DNA of 64,000 nt from Proteiniphilum sp. UBA5384 (GTDB taxonomy: Bacteria > Bacteroidota > Bacteroidia > Bacteroidales > Dysgonomonadaceae), in assembly GCF_002410825.1 (NCBI RefSeq), contig NZ_DHOS01000034.1, forward strand, positions 90,088-154,087, read 5' to 3'. This document shows positions 24,105-32,908 of this stretch, piece by piece. How positions within the stretch are numbered: position 1 is the first letter of the stretch; every line of letters begins with the position of its first letter. Position numbers and translations under genes: made by a program. Under the pieces are notes generated by a model. The model was given only the letters and a program-made list of their open reading frames with translations, was not told where the DNA came from and did no database searches.

Positions 24105-24854
24105 TCAGTCTGGTGAAGTAGGCTGGGAGAGGAGTTTGGCTGCTTCACCATCCAGAAACCAGTGGAGATTTTCCGATTCCGGTTGTACCAGCGCAGCCGG
24201 ATATTTTTTCTTGGCCGTATCCGGTTGTTCAATGATTTCTTTCACTTTATCCGCCTTGTTTTCTCCTGTTACGAGAAAAAATACATTTTTTGCCGCATTG
24301 ATTACTTCTCCGGAGAGGCTCACCCGTTTCTGTCCGCTCACGGGATGAGTGGCTGTCACACAATTGTCAGGGTAATTCCAGAGATTTATTTCGTGAGGGA
24401 AGATGGATGCAGTATGTCCGTCGTCTCCCATGCCTAACATCAAGATGTCGAAAGAAGGCATACCATTCATCGTTTCTAATTCCCGGTTAAGCAATTCGCC
24501 ATACCTTCCGGCTTCCGTTGCGGGATCATTTTCTCCCAGAATGCGGAATATATTTTCTTCGGGTACTGGCACAAAATCAAAGAGATGCTCTTTGGTCATC
24601 TTGTAATTGCTTTCATCGTCGGATGGCGGCACACAGCGTTCATCACCCCAGAAAAATTTGACTTTTTCCCAGTTTATTTCGTTTTCAGGTAGTTGCGCCC
24701 AATAATCAAATAATGATTTTGGAGTAGAGCCGCCCGAAAGGGCAATCGTCACCACGTCTTTTTTTTTGTTGGATACCATTTCCTTTACCTTTTCGGTAAA
24801 TGCACGGTTCAACTCATCCTTTGTATTGAAAACTTGTATATCCATCTTTTTCAA
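24105..24854 (-). CDS. pgl: 6-phosphogluconolactonase
   Basis: ALSGGSTP, FWGDERCVPP, GMGDDGHTASIFP. Confidence 0.95.
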   Translation of the reverse strand: MKKMDIQVFNTKDELNRAFTEKVKEMVSNKKKDVVTIALSGGSTPKSLFDYWAQLPENEINWEKVKFFWGDERCVPPSDDESNYKMTKEHLFDFVPVPEENIFRILGENDPATEAGRYGELLNRELETMNGMPSFDILMLGMGDDGHTASIFPHEINLWNYPDNCVTATHPVSGQKRVSLSGEVINAAKNVFFLVTGENKADKVKEIIEQPDTAKKKYPAALVQPESENLHWFLDGEAAKLLSQPTSPD

Positions 24855-24906
24855 TTACCTATTACCCAATTACAGATCATCTGATCATTCATTTTCCATT
24901 GTTCCA

Positions 24907-26439
24907 TCACAACTCACAATAAATCCCATCTTCCGCCAGATTTTTGCATGGGTAGCGCCAGGTATTTTCTTTCCCTTCTATTAGGGCATCCGCCACGTCC
25001 GGTCCCCAGGAACCGGCGGGATAACCATGGAGTGGTACCTCCTCAGCGTCATTTGTCCAATAATCGAGGATAGGCTGTACGAATTTCCATGTTACTTCTG
25101 CTGCTGCACCCTGCATAAAGAGCATATTATCGCCTCCCATACAGTCGAGTATCAATCTTTCATAAGCACCGGGTATGTAGTGGTCGTTTAATTCCGAATA
25201 ATGAAAATCCATGTTGACCGATTTCACCTCATAACCGTTCCCCGGCACCTTCATTCCGGTCTTCAGCAAGATTCCTTCATCAGGTTGGATACGTAGAATC
25301 AGTTGATTATCTGAATGGACCGTTCCCTCGGCCGATTTAAACAGCCTTTGAGGTGATGGATGGAAATGTATGACTACCTCCGATACTTGTGTGGGGAGCC
25401 TTTTCCCGGTGCGTATATAAAAGGGAACGCCTTCCCATCGCCAGTTATCGATAAAGACTTTCATTGCGGCATAGGTCTCTGTGCGGGAGTCTGTTTTTAC
25501 GTTTGTCTCTTCACGATACCCTTTATAATGTTTTCCCCGTACGGTTGCTTCGGTATATTGTCCACGAATCACATTTTTTTTCAAGTCGGTTTTATTTAGG
25601 GGACGCAATGAGCGGAATACCTTCATCTTTTCATATCGGATTTCTTCCGGCGTTATTTTGTTAGGTGGTTCCATGGCCACTATCGACAATACTTGGAGCA
25701 GGTGATTCTGAATCATATCCCGCAAGGCCCCCGATTCATCATAATACCTGCCGCGATCTTCTACTCCCACGCTCTCTGCTGCTGTAATTTCGACATGTTG
25801 AATATAATTGCGATTCCATAGCGGTTCGTAAATACCATTTGCAAAACGTGTCACTAGCATGTTCTGAACCGTTTCCTTACCCAGATAATGATCTATCCGG
25901 TAAATCTGGTCTTCATGGAAAAATTCCAGCAGTTGCTTATTCAATTCAATAGCTGATGAGAGATCGTGCCCGAAAGGTTTTTCAATGATAATTCTACGAA
26001 AGCCTTTTTGCTGCAATGTGAGCCCCTGCCCATATAAAAATTTAGGAATAATAGGGTATAAGTAGGGCGGAGTAGAGAGGTAAAAAATATAATTATGTTC
26101 CAAGTTGAATTGCCTATTCAGTTCGCTCAGTTTCTTTTTTACCTGTATATACTCTTCTCCTTTTGCTGTATCAATACTCAAATAAAAGAGTAAAGAAAGG
26201 AAACTATTGATTTTCTTTTCATCTGTATTCTTAGAATGGGCAAATTGTCGGATACCCTCTTTCATTTTTTTGCGGAACTGTTTATTGGTGAATTCGGTTC
26301 GGCTCACTCCTAGAATAGCATATCCTTCCGGCAGGGAACCATTCATAAACAGGTCGAATACGGCGGGGATTAGTTTGCGATATGTGAGATCTCCCGATGC
26401 GCCAAAAATTACCAGCGCCTGATTGGTCGTTTTCTTCAT
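24907..26439 (-). CDS. zwf: Glucose-6-phosphate 1-dehydrogenase; likely start 26439
   Basis: GASGDL, IEKPFG, RIDHYLGKE. Confidence 0.97.
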   Translation of the reverse strand: MKKTTNQALVIFGASGDLTYRKLIPAVFDLFMNGSLPEGYAILGVSRTEFTNKQFRKKMKEGIRQFAHSKNTDEKKINSFLSLLFYLSIDTAKGEEYIQVKKKLSELNRQFNLEHNYIFYLSTPPYLYPIIPKFLYGQGLTLQQKGFRRIIIEKPFGHDLSSAIELNKQLLEFFHEDQIYRIDHYLGKETVQNMLVTRFANGIYEPLWNRNYIQHVEITAAESVGVEDRGRYYDESGALRDMIQNHLLQVLSIVAMEPPNKITPEEIRYEKMKVFRSLRPLNKTDLKKNVIRGQYTEATVRGKHYKGYREETNVKTDSRTETYAAMKVFIDNWRWEGVPFYIRTGKRLPTQVSEVVIHFHPSPQRLFKSAEGTVHSDNQLILRIQPDEGILLKTGMKVPGNGYEVKSVNMDFHYSELNDHYIPGAYERLILDCMGGDNMLFMQGAAAEVTWKFVQPILDYWTNDAEEVPLHGYPAGSWGPDVADALIEGKENTWRYPCKNLAEDGIYCEL

Positions 26440-26579
26440 TTTATAATAGGGTTTCGATGATATCAAAATAACAATTATGGGTCTAAAAAGTTGATCGTAT
26501 ACGTTTCATTTCATTTTGGCCGGATTATATAGAGTGTCAAATAGATATAATGATTACCTGTAATTTATTATTTTCAGTG

Positions 26580-28430: not shown

Positions 28431-29633
28431 TTATCCTTTCTCCAAAATCTTTATCGTATCGTTGGCGATCGTCAACTCTTCATCGGTGGGGATGATAACT
28501 ACTTTTACTTTGGAAGAGGGTTTGCTGATTACTGCTTCTTTGCCGTGGACGGCGTCGTTCAGTGCTTCATCCAGTTCAATTCCCATATATTCCATATTTC
28601 GGCAGACATCCCTTCTGGTGACAGCCTGATTTTCTCCTACACCTCCGGTGAATACCAGAATATCCACTCCTCCCAGTACGGCTGCATAAGAGCCGATATA
28701 TTTCTTGATACGATAGTTGTAGGTCTCCATCGCCAGGGCTGCACGCTCATTTCCACTTTCAATGGCGGCACTGATTTCCCGCATATCGGAAGATATTCCT
28801 GAAATACCGAGCACTCCCGAGAATTTATTCAACAAGGTGGATATCCCATTGGTGCCCATGTGTTCTTTCTCCATAATGTAGGAGATGGCGCCGGGATCCA
28901 CGTCGCCCGAACGGGTGCCCATGATTAAACCTTCTACGGGGGTCATCCCCATGCTGGTGTCCATGGACTTCCCGTTTTTGATGGCGGTAACCGATCCACC
29001 GTTACCGATATGGGCGGTAATGATGCGTTGCTCTTCGTAGGGGACACCCAGGAACTCGCATACCCTTTCCGAGACATAGCGGTGACTGGTGCCATGGAAT
29101 CCGTAGCGGCGAATACCATATTTTTCGTACAACGAATAGGGTATTCCGTACATGTAGGCATAATCGGGCATGGTCTGATGGAAAGCAGTGTCGAAAACGC
29201 CTACCTGGGGAGTTTCCGGCATCAGCTCCTGAATGGCGTAAATACCTTTCAGGTTGGGAGGATTATGCAGAGGAGCCAACTCAATGCATTCATTCAATAT
29301 CTCAATCACTTCGTCGGTAATGAGTACACTCTCGTTAAAACGTTCGCCGCCGTGCACTACCCTGTGTCCTACAGCCTCTATTTCGTCCAACGATTGAATG
29401 CAACCATATTTTTCACTCAGCAGTACACCCAGGATATATTCAATGCCGGCACGATGCTCCAGAATCTCCCCTTCTAAAATAACTTTCTGTCCGTCGGCAA
29501 GTGTGAACTTAAGGAAAGAACCCTTCATCCCGATTTTTTCTACACCGCCCTGGGCAATCACCTCTTTGCTCTCCATTTCGAAAAGCTTGTATTTGATGGA
29601 TGAACTTCCGCAGTTTAGGACTAATATTTTCAT
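28431..29633 (-). CDS. ackA: Acetate kinase
   Basis: LVLNCGSSSIK, GHRVVHGG, APLHNP, RRYGFHGTSH, TDEE. Confidence 0.98.
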   Translation of the reverse strand: MKILVLNCGSSSIKYKLFEMESKEVIAQGGVEKIGMKGSFLKFTLADGQKVILEGEILEHRAGIEYILGVLLSEKYGCIQSLDEIEAVGHRVVHGGERFNESVLITDEVIEILNECIELAPLHNPPNLKGIYAIQELMPETPQVGVFDTAFHQTMPDYAYMYGIPYSLYEKYGIRRYGFHGTSHRYVSERVCEFLGVPYEEQRIITAHIGNGGSVTAIKNGKSMDTSMGMTPVEGLIMGTRSGDVDPGAISYIMEKEHMGTNGISTLLNKFSGVLGISGISSDMREISAAIESGNERAALAMETYNYRIKKYIGSYAAVLGGVDILVFTGGVGENQAVTRRDVCRNMEYMGIELDEALNDAVHGKEAVISKPSSKVKVVIIPTDEELTIANDTIKILEKG

Positions 29634-29785
29634 CTTATTTATTCTTTATGTCGTCAAAATAGTCCCGACTTTCAGTCTAGGTTGACTTTGTCCATTTTCT
29701 GTCGTCACTCGGCATAGAACAAGTAAACTTGACTCTGCACTCGTTCCTAAGAAAATTCTTGGATCTTGACTCTTGGTTCTTTTAA

Positions 29786-30763
29786 TTAAACAATATTTTT
29801 ATTGAAGGAAACGGGGTTTCCGTCATTATCATAAATATAGAATCCCTTACCGGTACGGACCCCCAATTGGTTGGACCGGTACAGCTTCCATAGAATAGGA
29901 TTGGGCTTGTAATGCTTCACCCCGAAATCGTTGAACATAGCTTCCATAAGGGTGACAAGCCGTTCGATACCGACGATGTCAGCCATTCGGAAAATCCCGT
30001 ACCGTTGTCCGTAGATGATAGTGAAAGTCTCTTCAATATCTTCTATTGAACTAACCCTTTCCAGCAGGATCTGGCATGCCTCATTCAGCATGACCCCCAG
30101 CATCCGCAGGCTTACGTTACCATTGCTTTCATTGATGCGATGGGGTTTGTATTTGATCAGTCTGGCAAAGACCTCCATCTTGTGATAAACCTCTTCCGAG
30201 GTGTACATACCACTCACGATTTCCAGAATGCGGGCATCGGGATGTGACACGGGGAAGTAAAGGCTCACACAGCGTTCCTTATGATCGAGGTCGGCAGCTA
30301 ATTCGCTAATAATCACTGTGGATCCGTTGGATGCAATAATGGCATCTACATCGAGAATCTCTTCCAGTCGTTTGAAGATATTTTTTCGCAACGGAGTACT
30401 GCGCCGGCCGCTTTCTGAGTACCGGGTGCATTCAATAACCAAATCGCAGCCTTTAAAATCTTCATATACAAGAGTGGGCGTGATACGGTTCATGATGATC
30501 TTTTTTTCTGAAGGTGTCAACCCCCAGCTGCTAATCTTCTGATCCATGACTTTTTGTAATTCTCCCATCACGTAATCGATCCGTTCTTGTGACTCATCCA
30601 GAAAAACTACTTCCATGCCGGCTGTAGCGGCCATGTTGATGATGGTTCTACCCTCTTTGCCGGCACCGACTACTCCGATCTTTGAAAATAACTGTTTCTT
30701 CTTACTTTCGGATGAAATCGTAAGCCCGTATTTATCAATAGGTTCTATGATTATTTCGCTCAT
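29786..30763 (-). CDS. 3-hydroxyacyl-CoA dehydrogenase-fold protein with a degenerate active site
   Basis: Rossmann GAGKEG and C-terminal LGVRTGKGFYIY; the expected GxHFFNP reads SLYFPVS. Confidence 0.85.
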   Translation of the reverse strand: MSEIIIEPIDKYGLTISSESKKKQLFSKIGVVGAGKEGRTIINMAATAGMEVVFLDESQERIDYVMGELQKVMDQKISSWGLTPSEKKIIMNRITPTLVYEDFKGCDLVIECTRYSESGRRSTPLRKNIFKRLEEILDVDAIIASNGSTVIISELAADLDHKERCVSLYFPVSHPDARILEIVSGMYTSEEVYHKMEVFARLIKYKPHRINESNGNVSLRMLGVMLNEACQILLERVSSIEDIEETFTIIYGQRYGIFRMADIVGIERLVTLMEAMFNDFGVKHYKPNPILWKLYRSNQLGVRTGKGFYIYDNDGNPVSFNKNIV

Positions 30764-30772
30764 ATCCGGAGA

Positions 30773-31786
30773 CTATTTGTTTTGTTTTAACCCGATAGCC
30801 TGGTTGGCTGTGATGGCTACCATATTATAAATATCTTCTACTGAACAACCCCGTGAAAGATCATTTACCGGAGCAGCCATCCCTTGCAGCACCGGTCCGA
30901 CGGCTTCTGCATTGCCCAATCTCTGTACCAGCTTGTAACCGATATTTCCCGCTTCGAGCGTAGGAAAAACCAATATATTGGCTTTTCCAGCGATGGGGCT
31001 TCCCGGGGCTTTGCTTGCACCGACAGAGGGAACAATGGCAGCATCTGCCTGCAGCTCCCCGTCAATTTGTAATTCCGGATTGTTCTCTTTGACGATGCGG
31101 GTCGCTTCACGAACCTTGTCTACCATCTCATGTTCGGCACTTCCCTTGGTGGAGAAACTAAGCATAGCTATGTGCGGCTCCACGTTCACCATGCTCCTCA
31201 TCGTTTGTGCCGAGGCAATAGCGATGGATGCCAACTCTTCTGCATTTGGATTGGGCATCACGGCACAGTCGGCAAAGAGGAGCAGGCCATTCTCCCCATA
31301 TTGTGGCGTTTGGGTGAACATGATAAAAGCACCCGATACAACTTTTACGCCGGGTGAAGTCTTGATAATCTGCAAGGCCGGCCGGAGTACGTCGCCTGTC
31401 GTGTTTTTTGCCCCGGCTATCTCACCGTCTGCATCGCCCGCTTTGATCATAAGACAACCCAGATATAGCGGATCCTCCACCAGTTGGGATGCTTGTTCAT
31501 AAGTCATTCCTTTCTTTTTACGCAATTCTGTAAGGAGTTGAGTATAAATCTCTTTTTTATCATGTTCTTTTGGGTCTATGATTTTAGCCTTTCCGATATG
31601 AAGAAGGCCCAACTCTTTTGCAACTTTCTGTATTTCAGTAGTACTTCCCAATAGGATGATTTTCGCTACGCCGTCGCGAAGCAGTCGATCGGCTGCTGCG
31701 AGAGTCCGTTGTTCGGTGCCTTCAGGAAAAACGATACGCTGTATGTTCTCTTTAGCTCTTTTGATCAGATCATCAAGTAAGTTCAT
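30773..31786 (-). CDS. pta: Phosphate acetyltransferase
   Basis: IVFPEG, FADCAV, LSFSTKGSA, DGELQADAA, GNIGYK, NDLSRG. Confidence 0.97.
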   Translation of the reverse strand: MNLLDDLIKRAKENIQRIVFPEGTEQRTLAAADRLLRDGVAKIILLGSTTEIQKVAKELGLLHIGKAKIIDPKEHDKKEIYTQLLTELRKKKGMTYEQASQLVEDPLYLGCLMIKAGDADGEIAGAKNTTGDVLRPALQIIKTSPGVKVVSGAFIMFTQTPQYGENGLLLFADCAVMPNPNAEELASIAIASAQTMRSMVNVEPHIAMLSFSTKGSAEHEMVDKVREATRIVKENNPELQIDGELQADAAIVPSVGASKAPGSPIAGKANILVFPTLEAGNIGYKLVQRLGNAEAVGPVLQGMAAPVNDLSRGCSVEDIYNMVAITANQAIGLKQNK

Positions 31787-31993: not shown

Positions 31994-32908
31994 ATGAAAC
32001 CGTTGAAAAGAGAAGTGGCGGCGTATGCAGGTCTCACGTTGATGACTGTGATTATCGGGTTTTCTTTTATCTTTGTCAAGATCGCATTGCGTCATGCATC
32101 CACCACTGATTTGTTGGCACATCGATTTACAGCAGCCACAGTAGGCTTGTTGTGTTTTTACTTGTTCCGGCAAAAGGGATGGCCTGAACTTGGCGGGAAA
32201 AAGATGCTTCCCTTGCTTGTGACATCCCTTTTTTATCCGTTGCTGATGTTTTCGATGCAGACGGTGGGGTTACAATTTACTACTGCATCCGAAGCCGGCA
32301 TTTTATCGGCGACCACTCCCATCTTCACGATTATCCTTGCGGCACTGTTCCTTAAAGAGAGAAGCTCATTTTGGCAAATCATCTTTGTGCTATTATCAGT
32401 GGGAGGAATTGCCTACATCATGTACAAAAATGGATTAGGGGAAATAAGCAGTGAGACGTTGAAAGGTGATTTTTTTATCTTATTGTCTGTGGTATCGATG
32501 GCTATCTATTTTGTGTTGGGCAGGAAAGTCACCCAGCAGTTCGATGCCATGGATATTACTTTTTTCATGACGGTGGTTGCTTGCGTTGTATTCAACCTGC
32601 TTGCGGTAACAGATCACCTGAATTCAGGCACGTTACCGCTTTATTTTGATGCTTTCAAAAATATCGACTTTTTATGGACCATACTTTATCTGGGAGTGCT
32701 TTCTTCGTTCCTGACTTCATTCCTCACGAACAACGCTTTGAAGGTGATTCCGGCGTCGCAGGTCTCGATCTTCAATAACTTCAGCCCTGTGATAGCCGTT
32801 TTCGCCGGGGTGCTATTTTTGAATGAAACGCTCCATCTTTATCATATTATCGGAGGCATCATGGTACTGGTAGGAATTATCGGTGTGAATCTGTTAAAGA
32901 AGAAATGA
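31994..32908 (+). CDS. EamA/DMT family transporter
   Basis: About 10 TM helices in two EamA repeats; IGFSFIFVK, FLNETL. Confidence 0.92.
   Translation: MKPLKREVAAYAGLTLMTVIIGFSFIFVKIALRHASTTDLLAHRFTAATVGLLCFYLFRQKGWPELGGKKMLPLLVTSLFYPLLMFSMQTVGLQFTTASEAGILSATTPIFTIILAALFLKERSSFWQIIFVLLSVGGIAYIMYKNGLGEISSETLKGDFFILLSVVSMAIYFVLGRKVTQQFDAMDITFFMTVVACVVFNLLAVTDHLNSGTLPLYFDAFKNIDFLWTILYLGVLSSFLTSFLTNNALKVIPASQVSIFNNFSPVIAVFAGVLFLNETLHLYHIIGGIMVLVGIIGVNLLKKK

Follow-up and report, generated by a model that had tools for sequence, protein, structure and literature searches.

The closest described relatives of the protein studied here are the (S)-3-hydroxybutyryl-CoA dehydrogenases (Hbd; EC 1.1.1.157; PDB entries 4KUG, 6AA8, and 9JHE), two-domain proteins of the HAD fold encoded with thl, crt, and bcd, together with human mitochondrial HADH/SCHAD (PDB entry 1F0Y), which has the same fold and a His158-Glu170 dyad. 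A role outside β-oxidation is represented in this fold by lambda-crystallin/CRYL1 (PDB entries 3ADO and 3F3S), an active L-gulonate 3-dehydrogenase with intact catalytic residues. In other dehydrogenase families, tyrosine is an established catalytic acid/base, and redox sensors of the NmrA/HSCARG type keep a dehydrogenase fold and its dinucleotide site, lack the catalytic acid/base, and act via protein partners. In the class II phosphotransacetylase (Pta) of E. coli and Salmonella, an N-terminal regulatory domain confers inhibition by NADH and activation by pyruvate. The substrate contacts of Hbd have been assigned in the F. prausnitzii enzyme, where Asp31, Glu90, Lys95, Asn115, and Ser117 bind NAD, Lys54 and Lys56 bind the CoA nucleotide, and the acetoacetyl group is held by Ser117, His136, and Asn186 (PMC11476959). 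The genome paper on Petrimonas mucosa lists a gene between pta (ING2E5A_0730) and ackA (ING2E5A_0728), ING2E5A_0729, as hbd and notes that the butanoate pathway is incomplete (PMC7768429).

In the window, i.e., the whole 64,000-nucleotide stretch of Proteiniphilum sp. UBA5384 DNA analyzed here, a HAD-fold gene occupies the same place. We refer to this pta-ackA intervening gene, and to its family, as X (Table 1). All three genes are co-oriented on the minus strand. A first-pass annotation of the sequence had described X as an intact, co-oriented reading frame 9 nt from pta, and we found exactly this: the frame is open over 325 codons, and its ATG at 30763 follows the TAG stop of pta (30775-30773). 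The Pta of the window consists of the PTA_PTB domain alone and is thus the short class I form, without the N-terminal regulatory domain. The gap to ackA, which the annotation had not mentioned, is unusually long at 152 nt; median intergenic gaps in the family are 25 nt from pta to X and 22 nt from X to ackA. No terminator-like site was found within this spacer, and a promoter and terminator scan of the operon gave counts at the level expected from shuffled sequence. About 25 nt 5′ of the ackA ATG, the spacer reads TATTTTG, which comes close to the Bacteroidetes −7 box (TAnnTTTG); ackA may therefore have a candidate internal promoter of its own.

Table 1. Gene X, its neighbors, and mapped features of X, in coordinates of the window
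Feature	Position	Strand	Description
Gene X	29786..30763	−	HAD-fold protein of 325 aa (P0001) from the ackA-linked family
pta	30773..31786	−	Class I phosphotransacetylase, 337 aa; NF007233 433 bits, above cut-off
ackA	28431..29633	−	Acetate kinase, 400 aa; TIGR00016 531 bits
X-ackA spacer	29634..29785	−	152 nt
Tyr169 codon (TAC)	30257..30259	−	Aligned with the catalytic His (His138 in C. butyricum Hbd, His158 in human HADH)
Leu219 codon	30107..30109	−	Position of the catalytic Asn188
Rossmann motif G33-A-G35-K-E-G38	30650..30667	−	All three glycines invariant across X groups
W80-G81-L82-T83	30515..30526	−	Family-specific motif; stands where Hbd has its CoA-nucleotide clamp (Lys54-x-Lys56)
Acidic N-terminal extension, residues 1-26	30686..30763	−	Conserved; consensus MxExIxEPIExYGL...LFSK
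Insertion loop, residues 112-125, after strand 108-111	30389..30430	−	pLDDT <50 at residues 116-118

X carries the Pfam domains 3HCDH_N (E 2.5e-29) and 3HCDH (E 1.6e-19), which together make up the full two-domain HAD fold. An AF2 monomer model built on a 43-sequence alignment reached a pLDDT of 87, with low confidence at residues 1-21 and 116-118, and superposed on the Hbd structure 4kug with a TM score of 0.95 and an rmsd of 1.6 Å (Foldseek; 29% identity). In this model, the fold of X is intact. Among the curated NCBIfam models, X stayed below the cut-off for all 20 that it matched, the best being NF004474 (190.9 bits versus a cut-off of 408), and no model separates the X family.

The first-pass annotation had called X a probable pseudoenzyme on the strength of residue changes seen in a gap-free alignment to the family motif. 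HMMER gave the same picture, with residues 129-313 aligning gap-free to the Hbd structures 9fbd, 4kug, and 4pzc and RCVSLYFPVSHPDARILEIV of X lying opposite R/KxIGMHFFNPxPxMxLVExI of Hbd. Counting along C. butyricum Hbd (4kug) reproduced the literature numbering Ser117/His138/Glu150/Asn188. On this scale, Ser117 corresponds to Ser148, the catalytic His138 to Tyr169, whose TAC codon is one transition from CAC, Asn141 to Val172, and the partner Glu150 to Glu181; the Hbd signature HxFxPxxxMxLxE accordingly reads YxPxSxxxAxIxE. The annotation had thus read all three key positions correctly (His to Tyr, the following Asn to Val, Glu kept), as well as the GAGKEG nucleotide motif and the ECTRYSE that takes the place of the EAVPE-type motif (EAxxE). 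The loop after ECT contains a 6-residue insertion, because of which Glu90 of the NAD site has no confident placement in X.

Further differences from Hbd went unmentioned in that annotation. Asn188 is replaced by Leu219, Lys54 and Lys56 are replaced by Ser79 and Gly81 on either side of Trp80, which is invariant, and X has a 26-aa N-terminal extension. Equivalents of the GxGxxG motif, Asp31, Asn115, Glu150, and Arg189 are all present. Compared with human HADH (22% identity), the His158-Glu170 region aligns gap-free with X, whereas equivalents of the dyad His, Asn208, and Asn161 are lacking. CRYL1 matches X weakly (E 1e-9 to 3e-10) and, unlike X, has no link to AckA.

X is not confined to this organism. 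Of 201 evenly sampled Bacteroidales genomes, 87 (~40%) have an ortholog at E ≤ 3e-60, clearly set apart from ordinary Hbd paralogs, which scored E ≥ 1e-43 and have no N-terminal extension. The order pta-X-ackA was found in 71 of the first 74 loci, the exceptions being mostly contig ends, and in 78 of the 80 loci that came from named genomes, which include Dysgonomonas, Tannerella, Paludibacter, Azobacteroides, and Bacteroides luti. The 20 lowest-scoring orthologs (33-40% identity) all lie directly upstream of ackA, 12 of them with pta also upstream. In other classes of the phylum, homologs of ~315 aa and 30-35% identity, here called X′, are directly upstream of ackA in all seven loci with no pta nearby; sampled other orders of the same class yielded no match at E ≤ 1e-45. 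As ackA is adjacent to nearly every copy examined and no pta lies near the X′ loci of the other classes, the constant partner of X is ackA, and pta joined the pair in Bacteroidales. The placement next to pta emphasized by the first-pass annotation therefore holds as pta-X-ackA within Bacteroidales but not phylum-wide. Porphyromonas gingivalis has pta directly next to ack and lacks an X between the two (PMC6461089), indicating that X is not indispensable to the pathway.

Several loci depart from the usual arrangement. A tandem in L181 (G016:C74:14000-20300) consists of a pta fragment, an X of the low-identity subgroup, ackA, an X of the His-type subgroup, and a second ackA, so that the two X subgroups each come with an ackA paralog of their own. 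In four of the seven X′ loci (L156, L157, L161, and L162), genes for an ABC-2 type transporter permease and a DrrA-like ATPase precede X′-ackA, which may reflect either lineage synteny or a functional link. Longer proteins contained no natural fusion of X with Pta or AckA, a weak negative; only ~590-aa proteins with two tandem HAD units were matched (P0127-P0135 and P0272-P0274, some named Micromonosporaceae), and these are among the best non-Bacteroidota matches to X. The nearest single-domain outgroups (P0133, P0136, P0139, and P0160) are also without Asn188, reading GFITTR or GFVTPR.

To compare individual positions, we tabulated 20 canonical Hbd representatives, 7 X′, 21 low-identity X, 39 His-type X, and 35 Tyr-type X proteins. 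Every group shows complete or near-complete conservation of Gly33, Gly35, Gly38, Glu111, Glu181, and Arg220, a single Ser is the only departure from Asn at position 146 (= Asn115), and an acidic residue at position 56, after strand 2, is found throughout the X groups. All X proteins have Trp80, Gly or Ala at position 81, and Thr83. Canonical Hbd has Asn188, Asn141, and Ser117 in 20 of 20 representatives and Lys or Arg at positions 54 and 56. The Asn188 position of the X groups is Thr, Val, Leu, Met, Ile, or Phe, and Asn141 persists in X′ alone. At position 117, about one-half of the X′ and low-identity X proteins have Ala, the His-type Bacteroidales clade has Ser or Thr, and the Tyr clade has Ser, Pro, Phe, Tyr, or Thr. 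The alignments thus indicate that the X branch has kept its dinucleotide motifs (GxGxxG, the acidic residue after strand 2, and Asn115), has lost residues that hold acetoacetyl- or 3-hydroxyacyl-CoA (Asn188, Asn141, and Lys54/Lys56), and has gained a Trp-Gly-x-Thr motif and an acidic N-terminal tail. The only X orthologs seen with Asn at the Asn188 position are L152 and L154 (Bacteroides luti DSM 26991 and a Bacteroidaceae MAG), which read GLVCNRL; this Asn is either retained or regained. Cys165 and Cys230 are invariant in Bacteroidales X proteins. A phosphorylating aldehyde-dehydrogenase type of activity, with a Cys nucleophile acting on acetyl phosphate, was considered and dropped, as both cysteines are missing from the ackA-linked relatives in other classes.

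Most members of the X family keep the His-Glu pair, and position 117 is always Ser or Thr in the His-keeping Bacteroidales clade, a pattern that could reflect real catalysis there. His-form carriers include Dysgonomonas gadei and Paludibacter. The catalytic His was replaced at least four separate times in the family, twice by Tyr and twice by Asn. One loss maps to the stem branch (length 0.33, support 100) that leads to the Tyr clade. The others are in L070 (= L122), a Dysgonomonas MAG in which His to Tyr is accompanied by Thr117 to Pro and His174 to Tyr; in L138, a termite-gut Bacteroidales MAG with His to Asn; and in L177, with His to Asn plus Asn115 to Ser. An AU test with the three trait columns removed rejected the grouping of L070 with the Tyr clade (p 0.02) and of all three tested lineages together (p 0.0004), p-values that are weakened by the groups having been named after the tree was seen. 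L177 (G081:C14:13590-17530) is the most degenerate X that we observed, and its frame is still open between pta and ackA.

The window's X belongs to a clade of many genera, including Proteiniphilum, Fermentimonas, and Petrimonas, in which Tyr is fixed. Among 61 genomes of the same family as the window, the X loci fall into two groups: in the many-genus clade (67-100% identity), Tyr is present in 35 of 35 loci, and in the second group (53-59% identity), His is kept with L070 as the sole exception. Of the database relatives of at least 80% identity (121 cluster representatives named Proteiniphilum, Fermentimonas, or Dysgonomonadaceae), 120 have Tyr and the remaining one has Ser; Glu181 and His174 are invariant among them. 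The X of Proteiniphilum acetatigenes DSM 18083, at 94% identity, is of the Tyr form. Within the Tyr clade, the median pairwise dN/dS of X was 0.024 (14 unsaturated pairs), compared with 0.080 for pta and 0.048 for ackA at the same loci; these are NG86 estimates, and most pairs are saturated at synonymous sites. X is therefore at least as constrained as its essential-type neighbors. The first-pass annotation had asked whether the His-to-Tyr change is conserved under purifying selection, and with a dN/dS of ~0.02 and Tyr in nearly all of the ~150 close relatives, it is. The change is real, but it is a clade-level event within a larger family that mostly keeps His and that had lost Asn188, Asn141, and the CoA-binding lysines beforehand.

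The active-site loop of the Tyr clade (residues 165-181) is almost invariant. The changes fixed in the clade, H169Y and L216N, and the clade-invariant Pro171, His174, and Asn214 all lie around the old active site, and judging from this pattern, the pocket fits a working ligand site, possibly a catalytic one, better than a dead one. The nearby His of the SHP motif, His174, had been raised as a possible occupant of the catalytic position. Because the nearest relatives that keep the catalytic His have His174 as well, and L070, which lost the catalytic His independently, has Tyr there, this residue is a poor candidate for a replacement catalytic base.

These data show that X is intact, is under strong constraint, and belongs to a so far undescribed branch of the HAD fold linked to ackA, and we infer that the function under selection is other than Hbd catalysis. 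Databases and the Petrimonas genome paper nevertheless treat X as an ordinary (S)-3-hydroxybutyryl-CoA dehydrogenase of the butyrate pathway. Its Pfam domains and best NCBIfam matches, which are Hbd models, agree with that reading, as does the listing of ING2E5A_0729 as hbd (PMC7768429). We regard it as highly unlikely, as His138, Asn188, Asn141, and Lys54/Lys56 are all replaced and the score is far under every curated cut-off. Moreover, in the genome, which is 98% complete, X is the only full-length HAD gene, the only crotonase-family (ECH_1) gene is MenB (487 bits versus a cut-off of 380), and no thiolase above cut-off is present as a full gene. With neither a thiolase nor a crotonase, the thiolase-Hbd-crotonase route cannot run; elsewhere the genome has one acyl-CoA dehydrogenase and two butyrate-kinase-like genes. 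The incomplete pathway noted for Petrimonas points the same way. Residue, cut-off, and pathway evidence thus bear out the earlier view that X cannot be a normal Hbd, and by residue and pathway evidence the hbd call is wrong. The loss of catalytic residues would also be expected of a gene that is decaying but still uninterrupted, in this strain or in its lineage. This explanation is barely credible given the dN/dS of 0.02, the intact frame in the ~230 loci and proteins examined, and the many genera spanned by the Tyr clade. Its strain-specific form, which the first-pass annotation had tied to close relatives all keeping His, is ruled out by that dN/dS and by the clade-wide Tyr, which those relatives carry.

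The main rival to the reading that we favor holds that X is catalytically active as an NAD(P)-dependent oxidoreductase on a new substrate that is not a 3-hydroxyacyl-CoA, e.g., a free acid or an acyl-phosphate-related AckA intermediate, and that the site has been rebuilt in the Tyr clade, with Tyr169 (perhaps with Asn216) acting as an acid/base in the manner of SDR or AKR enzymes. The invariant Rossmann motif, the His-Glu pair kept by most of the family, the very strong selection on X, the near invariance of the Tyr-clade active-site loop with its fixed positions at the pocket (H169Y, L216N, P171, H174, and N214), and the proven role of Tyr in other dehydrogenases would all be accounted for. 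Position 117, next to the nicotinamide, however varies in the Tyr clade, and roughly half of the X′ and low-identity X proteins have Ala there. The replacement of His by Tyr twice and by Asn twice, in L177 with loss of Asn115 as well, is hard to square with a single chemistry, and the gene context (ackA with or without pta) yields no candidate substrate. We therefore consider this activity possible but doubtful. A purely structural role, as a scaffold or assembly factor for an AckA(-Pta) complex with no need of a nucleotide, would suit the operon position, the short gaps, the co-duplication with ackA, and an N-terminal tail that is conserved yet disordered. It seems improbable, as GxGxxG, the acidic position 56, and Asn146 have stayed invariant over several hundred million years of divergence, which would be unexpected for an unused site.

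The explanation that we consider the most likely, albeit tentatively, is that X serves AckA (and Pta) as an accessory or regulatory protein without catalytic activity, binds NAD(H), and is distinct from Hbd. The invariant Rossmann site argues for NAD(H) binding, and the tight, ancient linkage to ackA together with the co-duplication with ackA argues for a direct functional or physical partnership with AckA. The first-pass annotation had proposed a non-catalytic acyl-CoA/NAD sensor or scaffold, or an enzyme with new chemistry; of these, an acyl-CoA sensor now appears less likely because the CoA-nucleotide lysines are gone while the NAD motif is invariant. In our proposal, X would bind NAD(H) through the retained Rossmann site and, as a partner of AckA and Pta, would couple ATP-yielding acetate formation to the redox state, with the disordered but conserved N-terminal tail as a candidate docking peptide. 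By analogy with class II Pta, X may do the work of the NADH-sensitive regulatory domain, which is missing from the short class I Pta encoded here. The two would share redox control of the Pta-AckA branch, whereas the class II domain has an unrelated fold and is fused to Pta, and X is a separate HAD-fold gene whose constant neighbor is ackA. NmrA-like sensors offer an analogy in mode of action only, as their fold is SDR and that of X is HAD; the invariant motifs of X point to a putative nucleotide site, and its ackA linkage and conserved, disordered tail to a candidate protein partner.

A bolder form of this proposal, which we put forward as a speculation, is that X represents a new class of HAD-fold pseudo-dehydrogenase, complexed with AckA (and with Pta in Bacteroidales) via the N-terminal tail and/or the Trp-Gly-x-Thr surface, that gates substrate-level phosphorylation by the NADH/NAD+ ratio. 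If so, the acetate branch of Bacteroidota would have in X a phylum-wide control point that has so far gone unrecognized. The main ATP-yielding route of fermentation in Bacteroidales, which are dominant in gut and anaerobic-digester communities, is Pta-AckA. As a conserved third gene inside this operon, found in ~40% of the sampled genomes and paired with ackA in other classes, X is an obvious candidate for the control step so far missing from the branch. That the catalytic His was lost repeatedly while purifying selection stayed strong also provides a clean natural case of a dehydrogenase fold being retained beyond its ancestral chemistry.

The HAD fold itself is known; what is new is an ackA-linked, catalytically degenerate subfamily within it. 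Full-text literature searches found no description of the X family, and the ESM Atlas held nothing for X beyond generic "HAD family" clusters. Annotated as hbd (K00074-type), X is counted toward "butyrate synthesis potential" in genome-based metabolic reconstructions, and in the Petrimonas paper, whose supplements contain no expression data for ING2E5A_0728 to ING2E5A_0730, its ortholog is the only Hbd-pathway step in an otherwise incomplete route (PMC7768429).

Two further features of the surrounding DNA were recorded. An EamA transporter gene (31994-32908, plus strand) is divergent from pta. A few kilobases downstream of ackA, a 6-phosphogluconolactonase gene (Glucosamine_iso family, 249 aa) is paired with a glucose-6-phosphate dehydrogenase gene (519 aa) at 24105-26466 on the minus strand.
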